The notes under the pieces are model-generated. The model searched no databases, was not told the DNA's origin, and worked only from the letters and a program-made list of their open reading frames with translations. Shown here one piece after another: positions 18,301 to 42,600 of a stretch of 64,000 nt of DNA. Location: assembly GCF_056712565.1 (NCBI RefSeq), contig NZ_CM160072.1; one strand, 5' to 3'. The translations under genes were made by a program, and so were the position numbers. Position 1 is the stretch's first letter. The number at the start of each line of letters is the position of its first letter.

Positions 18301-18751
18301 CTTTTCAACACGCAGCTAGTCCGGCAACCACTGATGGTGGAAACGAGGCGCATTGGTCGCTTCGGCAACATTCATTCCACAATTGATGCTGTTCACCACC
18401 ATTTGCAGCACGGTAGTGATGATTCAGCTACCGGTAACAAAGTGAGTACATAAAGGCCATACTGTCACGAACAGTGCAAAAGTGGCTCTTCCGCAACCTA
18501 GGTGAAGATTTTCATGCCAGTGGACTCATTACCCTCCGCCTAAGTAGTTCAAATCCGGCTCGACCATACATCTGGCGTATCAGCACCTTCAGGCGATTTA
18601 CATGACCTTCGACAACACCATTACTCCAGCGACTGCTGATTGCCTCACATATAGCCGCAGCATCAGCTTCCATCCCCGCAGCTACGCACCGAAGTTCTGC
18701 TGAGCCGCTTTCGTGAACTCGAGTGAACCAGCTGCTTAGCTGTGATTTATT

Positions 18752-20131
18752 TTAGGTTTTCAGAATACGGTAGAACTCGAGTACCAGTTGCTGTGCTATT
18801 TTCAACTCCGGTTCTTTTTCACACATCAGACTAATAAATCGGGATGCATAATTTTCTTCGCCCCTGATTATTCTCCAGGGCATCAACCAGCGGCTTACCC
18901 GGGACACTGAAGGAAGTCTTGCGGCAGTAGTAACCGGTGGGTTCCAGCCTTTACGCCATTTGGCAACAGTATCCCTGACGATGGTTTCACTGCCTGTCCC
19001 CCCCTGGGCCACCATTTCCCGCCATATCCGGCTGGCATTATAATTACCACTTTCTCGTTGCTCTTTTAACCACTCCCTCCATGGGTCCAGAAGCCCTCGC
19101 TTTGGAGGCCGGGTTGACATTTCAGGGAATGTTCCTGAACGCACCCAGCGACTGACTGTCACTCGCGACAGGCCTGTAATACGGGATATTTCCCTGAAAC
19201 TACATCCCTTGTTATGCAGGGCCATAACCTCTGTCCAATGCTGATGCCGTTTTTTGCGGGTTTGCTGTTTAAGGCGTTCCGGACGACGGAGCGATGCTAC
19301 AGGCACAGATATTTCTGGCTCAGGTGATTTATTCAGTGATAACTCTCTGACAACAAGACGTATCAGAGGCATATGTCTGTACATCATTCGTTCAGGCTCA
19401 TCACCAATACTTTTTAGCAGGTGCCATCGATCGGCCACCTGTCTGGCCTGAGGTGCACCTTCACGTGCTGCTGTCGCATAGACTCCACTGCGATCACGCG
19501 AGACAACCTGTATTTCCGGATATTTTCTGAACCAGGTCGCCAGCGTACGCTGATCACGGCCGGGAAGCAGGACGAGGGGACGGTGAGTATCAAGATTGAC
19601 TATTAACATACCGCAGCAGTGGCCCCGATGCCACGCCCACTCATCAATACCGACATGAGGCGCGCCTGACTGTTTCGTCTCCGGGGTATTGATAACCCTG
19701 CGAAGAAGAGTATCAGCACTGCAACGGAGACCCGCTGCCGTTGCAGCCCGTTTTCCAGCCTCACCTCCAGCTATTAATCCCAGTTGACGTTGTAAATTTT
19801 GTAACGCCTGTGAAGACTGCTGGTGTGAACCGGCGAAGGGAGCAAGCGACTCGGCAAAAATTTTACGTTAACAAGCCGGGTTACGGCAGTACCAGTGGCG
19901 GACGGAAAATACAAGCCATAGCGTCTGCCCTGAGCAGGGTAGATGCTGTATCCGGCGCCGACGACAACTATGAACAGAGTCGCTACGCTTAAAGCATTCA
20001 GGACATTGTGCTGTTTTGCGTTTTCCGTGGAGATGGAGGGTTATACCGTCAGAGCTAATAATTTGTCGACTGCATCGCCATCCGCAAGGTAACTGTAGAA
20101 GTGTCTTAAGAGAGTGCATTGCGTTGCCCAT
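18752..20131 (-). pseudogene. degenerate ISL3-family transposase (fragments 18752..19609 and 19868..20131)
   Basis: N-terminal zinc-ribbon piece (CPECFKRSDSVHSCRRRRIQHLPCSGQ) and a central/C-terminal piece in another frame; no intact ORF. Confidence 0.55.
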
Positions 20132-20414
20132 AACTTAAAACAGCTTAGATCCTTGTTCGCCAGAAAGTTTCATCCATTTTCTTCCACCCAGGTTGCGGAA
20201 GAACCACTTTTCATCCGTCGTTGACAGATGTGAAGTATGCGGGAGAAAAAGTGAATATCTAACTGTAATAACTCAGACCGGTACGAGTACCCGGGACGTC
20301 TACAATCATTCAGGGCAAAGTGCTAAAATTTCTCTATCCCGGGATGCCCCTACCAACGCAGCACTCCCGGAGATATCATTACAGCTCTACAACTGATTTC
20401 CGCGACTGAACCGC

Positions 20415-20825
20415 TCAGTTCCTATCCTTCCAGTTGCCTTCCTGCAGCCCCCCCTCCCTGCTGTATACCCCGGTACCACAACGCGGGCAGCACTTTTCTC
20501 CTTCATAATCTTCGTCACACATCACACAAAACCACTTTCTCACCTTCACCGTATAATCCGGAACCGTCATACCCTGCAGATGCAAACGACGGGCCTCTTT
20601 CTCTGCCGGGTCAAGCCAGGTGCATCGCAGCAGGATTTTCTCAGCGACAGTCATCTGGTCATGTTCAAACCACGGTGGTTGTCCGTCATTGCCCCGCTGA
20701 AGTGTTAACGGGCATCCACAGGACACACAGCACAAAACGTCCTGGCGGTTGTGCTTCGCTGCTTCTTTCGCCGTAACAAAATGGCCTTTGCTGTCATTCG
20801 CCATATAACAGTTCAGAATTCGCAT
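20415..20825 (-). CDS. Cys-rich zinc-ribbon protein (paralog 2 of a tandem pair)
   Basis: AGGAGG 4 nt upstream of ATG at 20825; shares the pattern C-x2-C ... PWFEH ... C-x2-C with the upstream gene. Confidence 0.5.
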   Translation of the reverse strand: MRILNCYMANDSKGHFVTAKEAAKHNRQDVLCCVSCGCPLTLQRGNDGQPPWFEHDQMTVAEKILLRCTWLDPAEKEARRLHLQGMTVPDYTVKVRKWFCVMCDEDYEGEKCCPRCGTGVYSREGGLQEGNWKDRN

Positions 20826-21214
20826 ATTTCCTCCTGAGTTGTCCGGGGAATACTGAATCCTCCGGTCTGGCAGTGTGTGCAGTACCGCTCCCCATAATAA
20901 TCGTGGTGACATTGTCTGCAGTGCCAGCTGGCTTTACGCACCACGGGTAAGGCATCCGGTACGAATTGCTGCAGACGTTTAATCAACTGTATTTCTCTGC
21001 GCTCCGGCCTGACATAAGGGCACTGTTGACCGTGCTCTGTCAGCCTGTCGTCAGTGTGTTCAAACCAGGGAAGTTCAGTGTCGTATTGCGGATGGTATCT
21101 GAGTGCACTGCCACACAAGTGGCAGGTGTAGTGAGCATAAGGTGCGGCCTGTACAGTACGGGCGCCCGTCAGACGTCCGTTGCTATCAAGAGCGAGAAAG
21201 GATTTTGCGTACAT
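20813..21214 (-). CDS. Cys-rich zinc-ribbon protein (paralog 1 of a tandem pair)
   Basis: 133 aa, CHLCGSALRYHPQYDTELPWFEH ... CRQCHHDYYGERYCTHCQTG; stop overlaps the start of the next gene. Confidence 0.5.
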   Translation of the reverse strand: MYAKSFLALDSNGRLTGARTVQAAPYAHYTCHLCGSALRYHPQYDTELPWFEHTDDRLTEHGQQCPYVRPERREIQLIKRLQQFVPDALPVVRKASWHCRQCHHDYYGERYCTHCQTGGFSIPRTTQEEICEF

Positions 21215-21379
21215 AGTATATGTTCCTTACCGTCAGACGACACGCAGGCAACAGCCGTCCCGGTACGGGCAGCGTGGTCAGGTGTGAATGGCGGTTTCAG
21301 TTCAGTCTCATAAGGGAAAATCAGTGTGGTGGCCATGAACACGTCATCACACTGAAGTCAGATAACTCGTCTGTCTGGC

Positions 21380-21949
21380 TCAGCCACGACTGCAGCCAAA
21401 GTTGCGCTCACCGGTGCAGTGAGCTTTGGTATGCTCCTTCGCCAGATAGTCAGCACGTTCCAGCACTTGCTGAAAGCCGGTGTCATCATTACGCGCCAGC
21501 CACACCGCCGGCCAGGCCGGAAAATGCACCAGCGTGGCATGGCATCCGGCATCCACCCCCAGGGCACTGCACCAGGCCTGTTCAATCATTCCGGCCAGTG
21601 ATCCCGGAGCGCGGTAATCACCGGCACGACACCAGGTATCCCGGTTGACCAGCAGCATCAGATGATAGTGTTTTTTACCTTTGCACTCCCCAAACTCCCG
21701 GGCCCAGACGTAATGCAGAGTGGTGGGATGCACGCGTTTACCTTCCCGATGCTTACGTTTCTGGTAAGCGTCGATTCGGGCTTTCAGGGCATTGATGAAG
21801 CGGGATATCACAGCTGCGTCCGTTGCTGCCGGTACATCCGGGAAACGCAGGTCAACCCGCAATGCCGTCAGGCGGGGATGAACATTCAGTGCGTGCCGCA
21901 CTGTCTCACGAATACGTTGCTGCCAGAAGGGGTTGTATTTGTAGGTCAT
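21380..21949 (-). CDS. YagK/YfjJ-family (inovirus Gp2-like) prophage protein; alternative GTG start at 21985
   Basis: MTYKYNPFWQQRIRETV... recalled as the N-terminus of the cryptic-prophage YagK/YfjJ family; GGAG 8 nt upstream of ATG at 21949. Confidence 0.5.
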   Translation of the reverse strand: MTYKYNPFWQQRIRETVRHALNVHPRLTALRVDLRFPDVPAATDAAVISRFINALKARIDAYQKRKHREGKRVHPTTLHYVWAREFGECKGKKHYHLMLLVNRDTWCRAGDYRAPGSLAGMIEQAWCSALGVDAGCHATLVHFPAWPAVWLARNDDTGFQQVLERADYLAKEHTKAHCTGERNFGCSRG

Positions 21950-22145
21950 GGTTAAATCTCCGTATGGTTCATACGGAATAGCCACGTCGTAAAAAATGCG
22001 CAGAGTCCCTGAAGTGACCTCCGGCAGGGCACTGTCTCAGGCACTCTGTGATAACCCGAACGGTCGTCTCCGGACTGACGGTTGAATTTTCAGCGTTGTT
22101 TTTTTAATGTAAAAAACCGGTTACGGGTAAGGCTGTGAGGAGGGA

Positions 22146-22349
22146 GTGATGGTGATACGCAAAAAGAAGTGCAGGGACTGTGGAAACGCGATTACTCATA
22201 ATACAGTGTGTTGCCCGTATTGTGGTTCTGTCGACCCCTTCGGCTATTACCGGAATACAGACCGTATCGTTACCATACTGCTGGCACTGATTATTGTGGT
22301 CCTGCTGACTACTGTCAGCGTCAGTGTGTATATACTGTGTAGCTGGTGA
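22146..22349 (+). CDS. small zinc-ribbon membrane protein
   Basis: CRDCGNAITHNTVCCPYCGS followed by one hydrophobic helix (IVTILLALIIVVLLTTVSVSVYIL). Confidence 0.4.
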   Translation: MMVIRKKKCRDCGNAITHNTVCCPYCGSVDPFGYYRNTDRIVTILLALIIVVLLTTVSVSVYILCSW

Positions 22350-23528
22350 GATAACGGTTCATGTATCCCCTGAGCTGACAGTGTACCGGGTATATTAAGC
22401 GTAACCGACAGGTTCTCCTTCATACCATATTAAATTTTTCCAGGTATTGCCGCTGCCTTATTTCGTCCCATACAGGAAAACTCGTCTGGGTTTCTGACAA
22501 ATACGCGAAACTCACAGCCCCTCAATATCAACCACACGCCGTAAGCCGGTAATACCTGAAAATCAGTCTATTACCGCCCGCGCCTCCGTTACCGAACGCT
22601 CAGGTGACAAGACTGAAGCCAGCACGCACTCGTAAAATTTGCGGTCAGTTCTGCCAGCCGGTTGTCAACGGCAGAGTTAAAGGCTTCCAGCTCCGCAAGG
22701 GTAAGTTTATAACGCGTGTGGGAATTCACTTTTCCCGCGTCTCCTGACGTATTACGGGCTGCCACTTACCTGGTGTCCCGCAATACAGCCTTAGTGTTCC
22801 GTTATCGGGGATCCGGACGCACCGCAACAACCGGGGAAGTATTTCTGGTTAGAGCAGTGTCAAGAGGGATTTCTCAGCCCCTCACTCACCGGCTCAGTCT
22901 CAGGGCAGGAGCATTAATACGCTCAGTTCATGTCTTATACAGGAATGGGCATAGGGGGAGCTGGCGTGTCACTGCTGATTTTACGCATCAGCGTTCATGT
23001 ATTTGCACTCTGATACAGAATGCTTCACAGCGCTCTGTTACCGGAGAGATTTACTCTCTTAGGTTATTCTGGCAAATCCTTTACGTTACTCTCTGATGAC
23101 TTCTTATATTTATAATACCAATCAGACAACCTTATCCCATCGGTGATATCAGTCTCCTGCTCGCCAGGAACGGGCTGACTCACTGTAACCACCTCCGAAA
23201 ACAACTCTGCAATTATCAGAACGCCTGCTTCTCTCCCTGTCCTCACGAAAACTATCCCCTCTTTATCGCGCGTGCGTGCGGAAGCATCTTTTCGCACCCC
23301 CGTTACTTTATTCGTACCCCTTATAATGGGGTGTTAGCCAGCCAGACCCGGCATGATTACTGCCCCCAGTCGTCCATGATCCGGGGGGTGATGTCACCGG
23401 GTCTGGTGGGGCGCTGGTAACCGCTAATAGGGGTCAGGTCAGGCACTTTTGCCGGGACCGTCTGTAACGTGGATGCCGGTACCTGCTCCCCGTGGTTATC
23501 TGGTTAACCCATATACAAGGGAGACAGA

Positions 23529-24920: not shown

Positions 24921-25127
24921 ATGGCTACCCCAGTTTCGCTGATGGATGACCAGATGGTCGACATGGCGTTTATCACTCAACTGACCGGCTTAACCGATAA
25001 GTGGTTTTACAAACTCATCAAAGTTGGGGGCTTTCCTGCCCCCATCAAAATGGGGCGCAGCTCCCGCTGGCTGAAAAGTGAAGTGGAAGCCTGGCTGCAG
25101 GCGCGTATTGCACAGTCCCGTCCGTAA
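24921..25127 (+). CDS. AlpA-family prophage transcriptional regulator
   Basis: Short HTH protein ...AFITQLTGLTDKWFYKLIKVGGFPAPIKMGRSSRWLKSEVEAWL typical of AlpA. Confidence 0.65.
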   Translation: MATPVSLMDDQMVDMAFITQLTGLTDKWFYKLIKVGGFPAPIKMGRSSRWLKSEVEAWLQARIAQSRP

Positions 25128-25205: not shown

Positions 25206-25823
25206 GTGAGGAATATGAAAATGAAACAACAGTATCAGACCCGTTACGAGCTGCTCCATGAAAACTACCAGAAATGGCTGACCGGCTTCACCCGGCACGC
25301 CGTATCATGGGGCGTGTGTCATCCGAATATCTACTATTTCCATAATCTGACGCCCGGGTGGGTGTCATTCAATGGCGAAAAACCGGAGATTGCCATCGTT
25401 CCCCAGAGTCTGCACCGGCTGATTTATGGTCCGGACAAACGGAGCTCCCCGTCCCTGGATGATGATCTGGTGGTGAATTTATGCACCAGCGAACACCTGC
25501 TGATTCATCATCCGATGCTGGAAGGGATCCTGCTGTCTGAATGTGAGCGCCTGAAGCAACATTCTCTGGCAAACAAACTGATCAGCCTCTTCCGTCAGTT
25601 TGGCGGCACGGAGTTACGTCTCAAACTGGTCTGGCTCTGCTGGCTTGACTTAATGACCGGAAACAGCCTTGACGACTGGACGAAAAACCTGAAACACAAA
25701 TCAGAAAAAGATCTGGAGCAATGGATCATTGCACGTCAGGGTCAGAGTGAACCACTGACAAATCTGATGGATCAGTACGTGCTTATGGCATACCGTACAT
25801 CGGTTGATGCCGCTCACAGTTGA
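25206..25823 (+). CDS. hypothetical protein
   Basis: 205-aa ORF next to the alpA-like gene; no recognisable motif. Confidence 0.35.
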   Translation: MRNMKMKQQYQTRYELLHENYQKWLTGFTRHAVSWGVCHPNIYYFHNLTPGWVSFNGEKPEIAIVPQSLHRLIYGPDKRSSPSLDDDLVVNLCTSEHLLIHHPMLEGILLSECERLKQHSLANKLISLFRQFGGTELRLKLVWLCWLDLMTGNSLDDWTKNLKHKSEKDLEQWIIARQGQSEPLTNLMDQYVLMAYRTSVDAAHS

Positions 25824-28922: not shown

Positions 28923-30146
28923 TCAACCACGCTGAATATCAAAGGAGAGCGTTACCGGTTAAAAGAGAAACGTAAAGCTGTGGTGATGACCCAAAACGCA
29001 ACGCCTGTCAGTGAGGATGAAATGGTGAAAAGCGGACAGCACCAGTAACGGAAGTATCTTAGCGGGTACGAAAATGGCAGGATCGTGACATTGACAGAAT
29101 ATCTCCTGATCATCCTGAATGACTGCAGTTGCTGTGGAAAAGTAAGCTGTCTCCACCCACGGCACGACTTAACAGGCATTCCGTAACTCCCCCAGACTTA
29201 CTATGACGCATTATCGGTGCACTTAAAACCGCAGACCGCATTGCGGGTGTTACTGCATGACAGTCTGACCGTATTGTGAGATGTCGGCAGGAACCGATGT
29301 CCGCGCAGGGGGGAACTTCCTGCAGTACCTGACGCTTCAAATAGTATTAACCGTAGGGCGTTGTTGGTTCCGGATCGCGGAAATGGGAGCACAGGTCTGC
29401 TACGGGGTGTACCTCTGACAGTAAATCCGGCTCGCTCATCTGACAGCCTCTCTCCCGGAAAAGACCAAAAATGAGATCGTCTCCTCAACAGCAGAGAAGA
29501 GGTCTTGACAGACAGGCTACATTGCATACGATTTATGAAGAAAAAGACAGCAAATATGGAGGTTATAGCGGAGAACACCCTACGAAATTCCTATGAAAAA
29601 CGATTGAAAAAAATATCAAATTCGATTCGTTTTTATATGCTTTTTGGGAACGTGGCGATGACGAACTGTTGCATGTGCAGAGGAGAATGCACCCGGAAGC
29701 ACCAGAATCATCCAGAAAGGCAGAACGATTACGCATCAAACCAGGAGACAGCAATATCAAGGTAATACACTGATTTAAAATGAATTTACAGCAATACGTG
29801 AAAACATTTTTTACTTAAAGGAGACAGATGCGCTGAAGAGAGTGCAGGTATTTTTATATAAAAATGAGAAGATTACGGGATATATATCCGGCACACTATG
29901 ACCGGAGAATACCAGTCAGGCTTAAAAAGACAATAAATACAGTGAGTTAAATACACAGAGAAAACGAAAACGTAGTATCAGAGGGTACATCTTACAACAG
30001 AGACTGAATTTCCGGTTTTTCATAACCGGCCATTCCGGAAAGTGCAGGCGGCCCGGAGCTCTTCTGACGCCAGTACCTGCCAGATTGTTCTGTACATTCT
30101 GTACATCATGTACGGAGGTTTTTGTTTGCTTTCTTAAAATCTGCAA

Positions 30147-38246: not shown

Positions 38247-40631
38247 ATGCACGAAAAGAACATCGCCCTGCTTTGTGATGAAGCCGACCGACTTTTGCAA
38301 CTGAACATTAATCTGCTCCGGCAAATGGTTGAGGAGCCAGATGTGTTATCTGACAGTAAGAACGAAAACAGACTGCTTTTTGATAAACAGAAAGCACTGA
38401 AAAGAATTGAGGAGCTGGAGGGCGAACAAATCAAAACCGCCCGCAGGGAGATGGTGCTGGCTGTTGTCGGCACGATGAAAGCAGGCAAATCAACCACCAT
38501 CAACGCCATTGTGGGGCAGGAAATTCTGCCTAACCGTAACCGCCCCATGACCTCTGTACCGACGCTCATCCGCCACGTTCCCGGAAAAACTGAGCCGGTT
38601 CTCCATCTGGAACATATTCAGCCTGTCCGCAATTTATTAATCACACTGCAGGAAAAACTCGCCACCCCGGCAGGACAGCAGGTCGCACAGACCCTGCAGC
38701 AAACCGGGGATACCCGCGAACTGCTGGATATTCTGACGGATGATGGCTGGCTCAAAAATGAATACCACGGGGAGGAGGAAATCTTTACCGGACTGGCATC
38801 GTTAAACGATCTGGTTCGTCTTGCTGCGGCAATGGAGACTGAATTTCCTTTTGATGAATACGCAGAAGTGCAGAAACTGCCGGTGATCGACGTGGAATTC
38901 AGCCATCTGGTGGGGATGGATGCATGCCAGGGAACACTCACACTGCTGGATACCCCCGGCCCTAATGAGGCCGGACAACCGCAGATGGAAGTGATGATGC
39001 GGGATCAACTGCAGAAAGCCTCTGCGGTTCTGGCTGTGATGGATTACACCCAGATGAACTCAAAAGCGGATGAAGACGTCCGTAAAGAGCTTAATGCCAT
39101 TGCTGACGTATCAGCCGGCCGCCTGTTTGTACTGGTCAATAAATTTGATGAGAAAGACCGCAATGGCGATGGGGCAGATGCCGTACGCCAGAAAGTTCCG
39201 GCAATGCTGAACAGCGATGTGCTGCCCGCCTCCCGCGTTTATCCCGGATCCTCACGCCAGGCATACCTGGCTAACCGTGCGCTTCATGAGTTACGGAAAA
39301 ACGGAACCCTTCCTGTTGATGAAGCCTGGGTCGATGATTTTGTCAGGGAAGCCTTCGGTCGCATGAAAAAAGATTACGTCTGTAAAGACAGCGAACTGGC
39401 AACTGAAGGGGCGACAGACCTGTGGGAATGCTCACTTATCGATCAACTGATAACGGAAGTCATACTGAGTTCACACTCCAGAGCTGCGGCACTGGCGGTT
39501 GATTCTGCCGCCGCAAAACTGATGCAGAATGCAGAAAATATCAGTGAATACCTGTCGTTACGCCATCAGGGGCTGATGCAAAGTATTCAGTCACTGCAGG
39601 CGCATATCACCAGCCTGCTTGAGGATATCCGGGAAATAGCAGACTGTCAGGAGCAGGTGACCGCTGATGTCAGAATGGCCATGGAGGAGATCGATGCCAG
39701 AACCCGGGAATTACTGACGGGGGTCTGCACCTCACTGGAAGAGGAGCTGAATGACTATTTCAGAAGCGGTAAACGCAAAGAACAGCAAATGCTGGAGGAA
39801 GAAAATTCAGCGCAGCCCCGGGAGAGAAACGCATTCGCTTTCTTTCACGATATTTTCGGAACCGGAAATCAGCATGACAGGATGCGGGACTTTGATCCCG
39901 ACAGCCCCGAAATAAAATTCAGTGATCGCAGGGAAGCCCTTGAACTGATGACGCAAATCGAATCGACCGTGACCAGCCTGCACCGTGAGGCTGAAGCACA
40001 GTTCCGGCCTGAGCTGGAGAAAATCGTCAGCGGGATTGAAACAGGTTTTCGTGGCACGGCCCTGTACGCCACAGAAAACATTGCCGGTCGCATCAATACC
40101 CGCCTGGAGGATGAGGGCTTTACCGTAAAAATCAGTTTTCCGGCAGTCAGTCAGTTACAAACCCGGCTCGCGGTAAAAACAAATCTGAGTGCGCTTATGG
40201 AGGAAAGAACGGAGACCGTCACCCGTCGCCGTCGGCAGAGTGGTTTATGGGGAAAGATTTGTGGAGCGTTTGGCACCAGTGACTGGGGCTGGGAAACCTA
40301 TAAAGAGGATGTGAGCCGCAGTGTTATCAATATCAACACCGTCAGGAAGGAAGTTATGTCACTGACCCGGGCATATTTCGGGGAGCTGCAGGCATCCATT
40401 GAGCAGGATATTAACCAGCCCGTCCGCCAGGAAATCGATGCCTTTTTCTGCGCATTCAGGGAGAAAGTTGAACAACTGCGTAACACGCTGATTCAGAGCT
40501 CTGAAGATCATAAACGCGATCAGCAGGCACAGGAACGGCTTACCAGGCGACTTCAGGCATTAAATGAAAGGGTTCCTGAGCTCATTACTGACAGTAAGGC
40601 GCTGAGGGAAGAGCTGGAGACAATGCTGTGA
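38247..40631 (+). CDS. bacterial dynamin-like large GTPase (CrfC/YjdA-type)
   Basis: 794 aa; G1 GTMKAGKSTTINAIVG, G3 LLDTPGPNE, G4 LVNKFDEKD, long coiled-coil C-terminal half; RBS aggaagg 8 nt before ATG. Confidence 0.8.
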   Translation: MHEKNIALLCDEADRLLQLNINLLRQMVEEPDVLSDSKNENRLLFDKQKALKRIEELEGEQIKTARREMVLAVVGTMKAGKSTTINAIVGQEILPNRNRPMTSVPTLIRHVPGKTEPVLHLEHIQPVRNLLITLQEKLATPAGQQVAQTLQQTGDTRELLDILTDDGWLKNEYHGEEEIFTGLASLNDLVRLAAAMETEFPFDEYAEVQKLPVIDVEFSHLVGMDACQGTLTLLDTPGPNEAGQPQMEVMMRDQLQKASAVLAVMDYTQMNSKADEDVRKELNAIADVSAGRLFVLVNKFDEKDRNGDGADAVRQKVPAMLNSDVLPASRVYPGSSRQAYLANRALHELRKNGTLPVDEAWVDDFVREAFGRMKKDYVCKDSELATEGATDLWECSLIDQLITEVILSSHSRAAALAVDSAAAKLMQNAENISEYLSLRHQGLMQSIQSLQAHITSLLEDIREIADCQEQVTADVRMAMEEIDARTRELLTGVCTSLEEELNDYFRSGKRKEQQMLEEENSAQPRERNAFAFFHDIFGTGNQHDRMRDFDPDSPEIKFSDRREALELMTQIESTVTSLHREAEAQFRPELEKIVSGIETGFRGTALYATENIAGRINTRLEDEGFTVKISFPAVSQLQTRLAVKTNLSALMEERTETVTRRRRQSGLWGKICGAFGTSDWGWETYKEDVSRSVININTVRKEVMSLTRAYFGELQASIEQDINQPVRQEIDAFFCAFREKVEQLRNTLIQSSEDHKRDQQAQERLTRRLQALNERVPELITDSKALREELETML

Positions 40632-41533
40632 CTTCACCATTTATTCAACAAATTGCTGATAACCGGGTATGTCAGGTACTCACCTGTCTTCCTGAAAAAT
40701 TTGTGGTTGATTTCGCAAACGGAATCGATGTTGCACAGGAGCATATCCGCACGGCCGGAGAGCGCACGTTCTTCCGGCGTTTAAAAGAGGGACTGACCGG
40801 CGAAGGCGCTGCACGGCAGAATGCCATCAATGCTTCGGTTGCACAGGGCCTTGAGGCGTCCCTGCGCTGGCTGACGGAGCTGACAACGTCACTTGCCACC
40901 ACAAACTACGCGATTACCCGGGTAAACGACAGGGTCAGTTCACTGGTCAGTGATACTGCCAGGCTGGCGCATTATTCCGCAGATACACGGGAGCAGTTAC
41001 TCATCCTGGCCGATCAGGTTCACCATAAACTGAATCATCTTGAAGAAAAACTCCACCGTGTTGACCAGGTTCAGCGGGCGCAGTTACATCTTGAGCAGAT
41101 ATTCTCATGGTGGAGCGCCGGGCGATATGCGTCATTTTCCCCTGCCGGACGTTGTTATGTGGCGCTTGAAGAGCTTCGCTGGGGCGCGTTTGGTGATGTG
41201 ATACGTCAGGGCGAAACAGGCCAGGTTAACCAGCTACTGGATATTCTCAGACATAAAGCATTAACGCAGATGGCACAGGAGAGTGGCGGTAGTGCAACCG
41301 TGCGTCTGAACACTCTGGACTGGCTTGGTGGTCAGGGCCGGGAGCAGGCAGATAACGAGTGGCATGACGCGATTAACTGGCTGGGAGACTGGTGCAGTGA
41401 AGAGCAGCATCCGGTGATCTGGTCAACCACGCAGGCTGCAGAACACTTACCGGTTCGCATGCCTCGCCTCTGCTCTGCAGAACGCCTCTCTGAAAGTATG
41501 GTCGATGAAATATTTCAGAAGGGGGCTGCATGA
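40628..41533 (+). CDS. dynamin-associated partner protein (possibly YjcZ-like), function unknown
   Basis: 301 aa; GTG start overlapping the dynamin stop (GTGA overlap), implying translational coupling. Confidence 0.55.
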   Translation: MTSPFIQQIADNRVCQVLTCLPEKFVVDFANGIDVAQEHIRTAGERTFFRRLKEGLTGEGAARQNAINASVAQGLEASLRWLTELTTSLATTNYAITRVNDRVSSLVSDTARLAHYSADTREQLLILADQVHHKLNHLEEKLHRVDQVQRAQLHLEQIFSWWSAGRYASFSPAGRCYVALEELRWGAFGDVIRQGETGQVNQLLDILRHKALTQMAQESGGSATVRLNTLDWLGGQGREQADNEWHDAINWLGDWCSEEQHPVIWSTTQAAEHLPVRMPRLCSAERLSESMVDEIFQKGAA

Positions 41534-42600
41534 GTACAGAAATGAAAACGGGGCTGGTGCTGTCCGGTGGCGGGGCGGTGGGCGCTTATCAGGCGGGAGT
41601 GGTTAAGGCACTGGCAGAGTGTGGTACACAGATCAGCATGGTTTCAGGGGCCAGCATTGGCGCATTCAATGGTGCCATTATCGCGGCCTCTCCCGATCTG
41701 TCAGAAGCTGCCGTACGCCTGGAGGCGCTCTGGGATCATCTGGGGAATAATCAGGTGCTGTCGGTAAACCGATTGGTTTACTTTTCATTGCTGAAAAAAT
41801 TGTTCCAGGCAATGAACCTCTGCCAGATCCCCGGACGTGCAGGAGCACTGCTTACGACGCTTCTTCGCCATATATCGATACTCAACGGGTTTGACAATCT
41901 GATGGCTCAGCCGTTGTTGTCAGATGAGCCCCTGACAGCGCTGTTGGATCATTATCTTGATACTGATGCTCTGGCAGACGGGCTACCGCTGTATGTGTCG
42001 CTGTACCCCACAGAAGGGGGCATGCAGGATATTATTGACTGCATTCGTGCTGAACTGGGTGCCGGAACCACGAAAAACGCCGTTTTTCAGCATATCCAGA
42101 GCCTGCCCCGCGGACAGCAGAAAGAGGCTCTGCTTGCGTCAGCCGCGCTGCCCCTGCTGTTCCGTCCCCGTGAGGTTCAGGGGACAATGTTCGGTGATGG
42201 TGGTATGGGAGGATGGCGAAATATGCAGGGAAATACCCCTGTGACGCCTCTGGTCGATGCCGGATGCAATATGGTGATTGTGACGCATCTGAGTGACGGT
42301 TCTTTATGGGATCGCCAGGCTTTTCCGGACACCACAATCCTTGAGATCCGTCCCCGGAAAAGGCTGAAATATGCAGGTGATGGTGACAACAGCGGCGGTC
42401 TGCTCAGTTTCACGTTGGCACATACCGACGCCTGGCGTCAGCAGGGCTATGAAGACACGATGCTGACGATGGAGCATATCCGGAAACCGCTGGCAGCACG
42501 TCAGGTACTGTCCCGGTCAGAAACGGTGTTGCAGAAAAGTCTGGAGATAACGGAAGAGGCAGATTTGGCACTGAGAAACGCGATGGCCCGGATTAAATAA
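41530..42600 (+). CDS. patatin-like phospholipase
   Basis: 356 aa; glycine-rich oxyanion loop LSGGGAVGAYQAG, nucleophile elbow GASIG (GxSxG), catalytic-Asp DGG motif (FGDGGMGG); ATGA overlap with the preceding gene. Confidence 0.8.
   Translation: MSTEMKTGLVLSGGGAVGAYQAGVVKALAECGTQISMVSGASIGAFNGAIIAASPDLSEAAVRLEALWDHLGNNQVLSVNRLVYFSLLKKLFQAMNLCQIPGRAGALLTTLLRHISILNGFDNLMAQPLLSDEPLTALLDHYLDTDALADGLPLYVSLYPTEGGMQDIIDCIRAELGAGTTKNAVFQHIQSLPRGQQKEALLASAALPLLFRPREVQGTMFGDGGMGGWRNMQGNTPVTPLVDAGCNMVIVTHLSDGSLWDRQAFPDTTILEIRPRKRLKYAGDGDNSGGLLSFTLAHTDAWRQQGYEDTMLTMEHIRKPLAARQVLSRSETVLQKSLEITEEADLALRNAMARIK

Follow-up and report, generated by a model that had tools for sequence, protein, structure and literature searches.

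Integrative islands of the type considered here hold a large share of the cargo for virulence, fitness and anti-phage functions in Escherichia coli, Salmonella and Klebsiella. They lack conjugation and capsid genes, and their replication and movement are poorly understood. In the classification of the HUH superfamily, proteins in which the HUH motif precedes the tyrosine are Rep proteins and not relaxases. P2 Ogr and P4 Delta are small zinc-finger activators of late genes; in Delta, an Ogr-like unit is duplicated in tandem. The Pseudomonas islands I23, I44 and I55, which integrate at transfer-messenger RNA genes, have a likely core of a tyrosine integrase, AlpA, an inovirus Gp2-like protein and RadC, are transducible, and carry defense cargo without conjugation or capsid genes (doi 10.1073/pnas.2512465122). 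For E. coli Nissle 1917 in mice, an integrase and a Gp2-family gene were reported to increase in copy number, the locus not being identified (doi 10.1101/364505). Here we analyze a module of three genes, one of the YfjJ/YagK family and two encoding paralogous zinc-ribbon (ZR) proteins, at positions 20415-21949 of a 64,000-nucleotide stretch of contig NZ_CM160072.1 (assembly GCF_056712565.1), hereafter called the window. The trio belongs to the backbone operon of CP4-44/CP4-57-like islands of Enterobacterales, which have a P4-type integrase and are regulated by AlpA, and the copy in the window is a truncated version of this larger conserved operon.

All three genes lie on the minus strand with intact open reading frames (ORFs), as an earlier note on this DNA had described. 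The YfjJ-like gene (21380-21949, 189 amino acids; 'inovirus Gp2 family protein' in RefSeq) is followed by ZR1 (20813-21214, 133 amino acids), which belongs to the ZRa clade and combines the domains DUF7828 and Zn_ribbon_11, and by its paralogue ZR2 of the ZRb clade (20415-20825, 136 amino acids), which has the same two predicted zinc sites. RefSeq names the pair 'putative zinc ribbon protein' and 'zinc-ribbon domain-containing protein' and annotates the same three coding sequences in E. coli Nissle 1917 and CFT073. The proposed tandem duplication was borne out by pairwise alignment of ZR1 and ZR2 over 125 residues, with 31% identity and E=5e-16. The overlap of stop and start codons, which the earlier note had placed at the YfjJ-like gene, actually joins ZR1 and ZR2: it comprises 13 nucleotides (20813-20825, minus strand), the ATG of ZR2 being at 20825 with an AGGAGG ribosome-binding site six bases 5' of it. 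The YfjJ-like gene is instead separated from ZR1 by 165 nucleotides. The overlap implies a putative translational coupling of the two ZR genes.

Of 5426 complete E. coli genomes, 3220 contain the trio at a query coverage of at least 80%, and 3807 contain any part of it, at a median of two places in each. Each exact protein is present on at least 1000 contigs. With ZR1 and ZR2 as queries, relatives were recovered throughout Enterobacterales. The family is narrow, since a profile search of 1.84 billion representatives gave only 294 ZR clusters, many of which are fragments. A scan of one genome per species with a ZRa-only alignment as the query returned 24 loci, spread over Salmonella, Hafnia, Mixta, Trabulsiella, Superficieibacter, Tenebrionibacter, Siccibacter, Serratia, Buttiauxella, Citrobacter, Photorhabdus, Budvicia, Atlantibacter, Leclercia, Enterobacillus and Erwinia. 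Gene order, overlap and a non-coding leader are kept across at least 16 genera. Every intact locus has an adjacent pair, ZRa (beginning MYAKSF) and then ZRb (MRMLKCY), typically with a 13-nucleotide overlap, which is identical in Salmonella, Hafnia, Mixta, Superficieibacter, Tenebrionibacter, Siccibacter and a Klebsiella plasmid. In 27 of the 27 distinct loci whose upstream sequence reaches at least 1.5 kb, the pair is preceded by a co-oriented YagK/YfjJ-type gene; the co-orientation described for the window holds in every informative locus. This gene is either of the window type or belongs to a very divergent subfamily of about 190 amino acids that is weakly related to the Pfam family REP_ORF2-G2P. 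The two subfamilies barely recognize each other, yet the position holds in all of these loci.

In full, the canonical operon runs from Gp2 through AlpA, mini zinc ribbon, leader, ZRa, ZRb and degenerate Gp2 (UCP030791) to DUF2913. For instance, the annotated locus on the Klebsiella plasmid (L038) reads inovirus Gp2 family, AlpA, ZRa, ZRb, 'inovirus-type Gp2' and DUF2913. The operon is located between a conserved island arm, with genes for a GTPase, DUF932, antirestriction, RadC and CbeA/CbtA, and a region of cargo and integrase. More distant islands have the order YagK/YfjJ, AlpA, a single ZR gene, a Gp2-like gene, defense-like cargo and a P4-type integrase, and their other arm again carries the GTPase, DUF932, antirestriction, RadC and CbeA/CbtA genes. 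The single ZR gene of these islands, the separate ZRa and ZRb clades kept as an overlapping pair in different genera, and the conserved order indicate that the ZR duplication is old but secondary and that the genes are part of the island backbone, not of its cargo. A pair of genes for AlpA and a protein of about 197-200 amino acids lies inside or beside the module in Salmonella and in another E. coli island. Searching for the module in integrative elements, as the earlier note had suggested, thus placed the trio in the backbone of integrative islands of Enterobacterales. Its assignment to an inovirus or a classical cryptic prophage did not hold: the surroundings in the window consist of island genes and insertion sequence (IS) elements, not of genes for coat, assembly or single-stranded-DNA-binding proteins, and the locus is instead what is left of a genomic island of the P4-integrase type at the CP4-44 site. 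No ZR protein was found in 50,697 phage records; ZR proteins occur on 33 of 72,556 plasmid records and on two IMG/VR contigs.

Between alpA and ZRa an unannotated ORF of 44 amino acids (93 in the longest frame) was observed in loci L012 (about 9760-9895), L016 (9581-9862), L017, L019 and L038; it is missing from the window. Its product has the motif W-x-C-P-R-C-x3-Y-C-G-x-K-P-C-P-x-C and matches Zn_ribbon_11 with E=0.0014, and the ORF would give the canonical operon a third zinc-ribbon gene. Genes beside the module vary by island and resemble defense cargo; they encode an AAA_15/OLD-like ATPase, a UvrD-like helicase with ankyrin repeats, a ScoMcrA-like HNH protein and an SMEK_N/CTD10-MC6-DUF2326 set (L012, 6673-8649, minus strand; L034, 12326-15175; L035, 2407-3279; L040, 7400-10320). 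Their variation suggests a cargo hotspot beside the backbone operon.

The YfjJ-like protein covers positions 1-170 of the 170 positions of the YagK_YfjJ_C profile (PF11726) with 161.7 bits at a cut-off of 25.8. Its AlphaFold2 model is confident (predicted local distance difference test, pLDDT, 82.6; predicted template modeling score 0.83) and has the alpha/beta fold of HUH proteins, with an HYH motif on the central strand and Tyr168 on a helix. The motif, H94-Y-H96 in strand 93-102, is part of a strand G-K-K-H-Y-H-hydrophobic that is conserved in the family alignment; it is kept in all members of the catalytic type and missing from the UCP030791 paralogues. The tyrosine belongs to Y168-L-A-K171 in helix 156-170, in which Y and K are kept in YfjJ, YagK and their relatives, and is followed in the YfjJ-like family by an E-R-N-F-G-C-S tail. 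A search of PDB sequences gave no sequence match to this protein. In the fold comparison the scores were 8.1 for SIRV1 ORF119, 7.8-7.5 for parvovirus NS1, 7.0 for the Rep protein of adeno-associated virus 5, 6.9 for Helitron and 6.6 for RepB. We therefore regard the protein as a predicted single-tyrosine HUH nuclease, an uncharacterized member of the superfamily, and place it provisionally in the Rep class because its motifs come in the order HUH and then Tyr, as in Rep proteins. Of the two functions that the earlier note had considered for the module, replication initiation is plausible for this protein in view of the modeled HUH fold and the motifs. Nucleic-acid sensing found no backing, as there were no matches in PADLOC and no informative fold match.

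The paralogue of the UCP030791 family, encoded 3' of ZRb in canonical loci, has lost both histidines and the tyrosine and is therefore likely a pseudo-enzyme. Among phage records the YfjJ-like protein had a single match, at 91.5% identity, in GenBank OR844780.1 (L044), which is probably host island DNA and not a phage genome. This entry is an unverified, low-coverage contig of 4.4 kb from a phage preparation.

Both ZR proteins are full-length members of their families, with DUF7828 scores of 105.8 bits for ZR1 and 106.0 bits for ZR2 (Pfam; cut-off 25.7, E about 1e-30) and Zn_ribbon_11 scores of 38.0 bits (E=1e-9) and 64.7 bits (E=6e-18), respectively, at a cut-off of 24. The Cys-rich architecture reported for the pair (C-x2-C, PWFEH, C-x2-C) is common to the family. 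In an alignment of 38 homologues that reaches down to about 25% identity, C31, C34, F51, H53, C65, W97, C99, C112 and C115 are invariant, and C102 is present in at least 90%. The pattern fits two predicted zinc sites per chain, which in ZR1 would be an N-terminal CCHC domain with C31, C34, H53 and C65 around the PWFEH motif (DUF7828) and a C-terminal C4 ribbon with C99, C102, C112 and C115 (Zn_ribbon_11). The ratio of nonsynonymous to synonymous divergence (dN/dS) between genera is 0.11-0.25 for ZRa and 0.10-0.26 for ZRb, calculated for unsaturated orthologue pairs with dS below about 1 (0.3-1.0). Judging from these ratios, both genes are under purifying selection, and the ORFs, whose lack of expression and conservation the earlier note would have taken as refuting, are conserved.

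The fold of the ZR proteins gives no clue to their function. The AlphaFold2 model of ZR1 (pLDDT 76) has two small beta-rich zinc domains and a connecting helix, and a fold search of BFVD with it gave no significant match. Among PDB sequences the ZR profile matched RPB9, the RNA polymerase subunit with two zinc ribbons, across both CxxC pairs at a non-significant E=0.04, and the pattern C-x2-C...(W/H)F(E/A)H resembles the CoiA_N (E=0.11) and DUF7830 (E=0.07) profiles below threshold. The isoelectric points are 7.1 for ZR1 and 6.9 for ZR2. NCBIfam and PHROGs offered nothing informative for the module proteins. In E. coli, ZRb comes in at least three subtypes and in chimeras. It varies more than ZRa and is fragmented in five or six loci with an intact ZRa; the converse was never seen. 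Three fusion proteins (P0327, P0017 and P0030) were considered as Rosetta stones and rejected as singleton deletion products that join gene fragments.

A conserved leader of about 70 nucleotides (21226-21294, minus strand) lies directly 5' of the ribosome-binding site of ZR1, with the core ..CCGCCAUUCAC..CUGCCCGUACCGGGACGGCU..GCCUGCGUGUCGUCUG(G/A)CGGUAAGGA. Its identity between genera is 74-93%; third codon positions of ZRa reach only 42-78%, and the sequence farther upstream 12-78%. The leader is not a coding sequence, since loci differ in it by single-base indels. A covariance model built from 18 leader sequences gave one match per locus, always just 5' of ZRa, and no match in the islands with a single ZR gene; Rfam gave no match at E<=1 on both strands of 19500-23500. 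In a proposed fold with four helices, 83-87% of cells are paired, versus 33-41% when the fold is slid, with many G-U pairs on the sense strand. Seven of its pairs show double changes, a number that 20-30 of 500 shuffles also reach. RNAalifold retained a 3-bp hairpin alone, and the z-scores of minimum free energy were about 0 to -0.8, with one sequence at -2.3, overall no better than shuffles. A metagenome scan with a 16-base leader pattern gave 80 loci, of which ten were genuine and the rest mostly due to chance, and covariation was not improved. As judged by its conservation, the ZRa leader is a real and constrained element, which may be either an RNA element or a protein-binding DNA site.

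We tentatively favor, at a confidence somewhat short of even, a reading in which the HUH nuclease has the ZR pair as its accessory or regulatory partner when islands replicate or are mobilized. The YfjJ-like enzyme would nick a specific site of the island through Tyr168, with a metal held by His94 and His96, and the nick would start rolling-circle-type replication or single-strand mobilization of the island after AlpA-dependent excision. ZRa and ZRb would be made in a fixed ratio by translational coupling; each chain would bind two zinc ions, and the two would act jointly, probably as a heteromer. As a partner of the flanking HUH proteins, the pair may bind nucleic acid, confer specificity or act in regulation, the pseudo-HUH paralogue may be a non-catalytic partner, and the conserved leader 5' of ZRa may control ZR expression. 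That the ZR pair would work with the HUH proteins is suggested by the invariant synteny and the translational coupling. The core of the Pseudomonas islands and the copy-number gain in Nissle fit this reading, neither being a test of it. A more ambitious version has the operon as the replication or mobilization engine of the CP4-like and pathogenicity islands that about 70% of complete E. coli genomes contain, with a ZRa-ZRb heterodimer that recruits or licenses the HUH nuclease at a hairpin after AlpA-triggered excision and a leader that is an autoregulatory element bound by the zinc proteins. We consider this version unlikely as a whole.

Several points weigh against the favored partnership. 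Synteny is the one line of support for a link between the ZR and HUH proteins, and K-12 YfjJ and YagK have no ZR genes nearby, which means that the HUH family does not strictly need ZR. The YfjJ-like protein narrowly missed the cut-off of REP_ORF2-G2P (PF23343; 26.0 bits against 27.8, E=1.2e-5), and no origin or nick site was identified for it. The isoelectric points of the ZR proteins are not typical of DNA-binding proteins. Searches of the literature gave no functional study of the families of the trio, also under the UniRef name 'Ybl85', and no biochemical or genetic data for any protein of the module, in agreement with the earlier description of the module as uncharacterized.

The near-neutral isoelectric points are consistent with protein-protein contacts, and so with a different role in which ZRa and ZRb are zinc-dependent transcription factors, binding RNA polymerase or DNA, within the AlpA circuit. 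The pair would then switch genes of the island or of a helper element and autoregulate through the conserved leader, and the neighboring HUH gene would be functionally independent. The position of the pair immediately after alpA in the canonical operon and the operator-like, sequence-conserved element directly 5' of ZRa agree with such a role, and Ogr and Delta provide precedents. The weak resemblance to RPB9 across both CxxC pairs points the same way but is non-significant, and neither Ogr_Delta (PF04606) nor another regulator family was among the Pfam matches of the module proteins at E<=1. Transcription factors of this kind would also leave unexplained the HUH-type genes on both sides in every canonical locus. 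On balance we hold this role to be possible but rather doubtful. It is quite improbable, in our estimate, that ZRa-ZRb form a module of the toxin-antitoxin, addiction, defense or anti-defense kind. Such a module would be in keeping with two small coupled genes that a mobile element carries behind a conserved sequence element, with the one-sided breakage of the second gene, with its far greater variability and with the defense-type cargo that adjoins the module in several islands. However, type II toxin-antitoxin systems have unrelated partners, and these small overlapping genes encode paralogues that are identical in domain architecture and share their fold and zinc ligands, which sets them apart from known pairs. 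Moreover, none of the three proteins matched PADLOC-DB 2.0 below E=0.06, the genes are conserved backbone and not variable cargo, and divergent islands have a single ZR gene. Finally, the genes could be functionless relics of a decaying island, conserved through recent spread, as the IS-truncated copy in an island without an integrase and the many truncated or fused variants in E. coli might suggest. To this we give very little credence: dN/dS values of 0.1-0.25 at a synonymous divergence of 0.3-1.0 between genera, zinc ligands that are invariant down to about 25% identity, and the order, overlap and leader shared by at least 16 genera largely refute it for the family as a whole.

The 165-nucleotide spacer between the YfjJ-like gene and ZR1 (21215-21379, minus strand) marks a deletion. 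The multi-locus alignment shows alpA and the 44-amino-acid mini zinc-ribbon ORF at this position in other genera, and both are deleted here. RNA folding of the spacer as a whole is unremarkable (z=-0.13). A scan for terminators and promoters around the module gave counts at the level of shuffles and no terminator in the spacer, and short repeats near the module were at chance level. Directly upstream of the YfjJ-like gene a 7-bp inverted repeat, CCGTATG-AAC-CATACGG (21960-21976, minus strand), overlaps the GGAG ribosome-binding site of the gene and is preceded by a conserved TTTTTTAC motif. Other genera have GGTTAT-GAACG-ATAACC at the same position, with three arm positions changed on both sides and complementarity kept, and an inverted repeat was also found at the equivalent site in L004, L006, L012, L015-L017 and L038. 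The repeat is a candidate operator, a candidate hairpin of the 5' untranslated region or a candidate recognition hairpin of the HUH protein; for the last of these, the ZRa leader holds a further candidate hairpin. Farther 5' of the gene, the consensus scan gave a sigma-70-like promoter match, TTTACA-16-GAAAAT (22086-22113, minus strand); sites of this kind near the gene are as numerous as expected from shuffles, and the match is weak evidence.

The window corresponds to E. coli Nissle 1917 and CFT073. Its coordinates coincide with those of Nissle 1917 as far as about position 30,000 and are offset by one base thereafter. The island, located between cobU and tmaR/yeeA and thus at the locus of the K-12 cryptic prophage CP4-44, spans about 45 kb (window positions about 3000-48200) and has no integrase. 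It contains genes for iron uptake, DUF932, antirestriction and YeeS(RadC)-YeeT-CbeA-CbtA, along with many IS remnants of ISL3, IS110 (ISEc20), IS100/IS21, IS66 and IS4. An operon for a dynamin-family protein, an RdcB-family protein and a patatin-like phospholipase lies inside it (38247-42600, plus strand). Near the cobU end we also observed a pair of genes for an IbrB-like (ParB-type) and a PAPS-reductase-like (IbrA-type) protein (4411-6329, minus strand).

An ISL3-family transposase pseudogene (18512-20131, minus strand) abuts the module 284 nucleotides beyond ZR2, and tblastn detected no remnant of the degenerate Gp2/UCP030791 gene or of DUF2913 in the window or in K-12 CP4-44. A gene for an AlpA-family regulator (24921-25127, plus strand; Pfam Phage_AlpA, E=2e-6) and its partner, a conserved hypothetical gene of about 200 amino acids (25221-25823, plus strand), are displaced backbone genes, 3 kb off, on the opposite strand and beyond an IS110 element. 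CFT073 has an extra ISEc10 insertion after the AlpA-family gene compared with the window. The lack of an integrase, the deletion of the alpA segment and the removal of the distal genes by an IS element make the copy in the window unlikely to drive mobility, even though its three ORFs have stayed intact. Between the module and the IS110 element there is a truncated Hha/YmoA-family fragment (22589-22732, minus strand). A protein of 67 amino acids (22146-22349, plus strand), divergent from the YfjJ-like gene, combines a CxxC...CxxC zinc ribbon at its N terminus with a transmembrane helix at its C terminus; it is intact in the window and in Nissle and annotated as frameshifted in CFT073. This protein matches PHROG 38187 of unknown function (E=1.6e-5) and has no relation to ZR1 or ZR2.

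As a decayed remnant, the copy in the window is of limited interest by itself. The protein families were already catalogued and are annotated in thousands of genomes; new here are the full operon architecture, the HUH assignment, predicted from the model, the likely pseudo-enzyme partner and the conserved leader. An operon of a Rep-like nuclease, a putatively co-translated zinc pair and a conserved leader offers concrete and cheap targets for the question of island mobility. If the operon proved merely regulatory, it would still give a context to the widespread DUF7828/Zn_ribbon_11 and UCP030791 domains.

Compared with known systems, the module would be a Rep-like nuclease with separate, paired zinc subunits on integrative islands. 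The Rep-class HUH endonucleases considered for comparison were SIRV1 ORF119, the nuclease domains of parvovirus NS1 and adeno-associated virus Rep, pMV158 RepB and the gene II protein of filamentous phages. Unlike these, the YfjJ-like protein has only 189 amino acids without a helicase or other domain, is encoded on integrative islands and not on plasmids or phages, and comes with a degenerate paralogue and separate zinc proteins. K-12 YfjJ (CP4-57) and YagK (CP4-6) belong to the same Pfam family as the window protein at 36-39% identity and share with it the HYH motif, Y-x-x-K and the C-terminal RNFGCS tail. Their genes reside on the same kind of island, yfjJ being beside alpA in CP4-57. However, yfjJ is followed by the AbpAB defense genes and yagK by yagJ, neither being beside ZR genes, and the CP4-44 locus of K-12 has no ZR genes. 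The Pseudomonas islands I23, I44 and I55 are alike in their described gene content and differ in host clade, and the paper never mentions zinc (doi 10.1073/pnas.2512465122). For the zinc proteins, the closest families are their own, DUF7828 and Zn_ribbon_11 (formerly DUF3279), which are without literature. The likeness to CoiA is confined to the N-terminal finger and lies below threshold, and the ZR proteins lack the nuclease domain of CoiA. Like Ogr and Delta, the ZR proteins are small and, by prediction, zinc-binding, and the duplication in Delta may be seen as analogous to that of ZRa and ZRb. They differ from Ogr and Delta in length and cysteine spacing, with no detectable sequence relationship, and in having two predicted zinc sites per chain.

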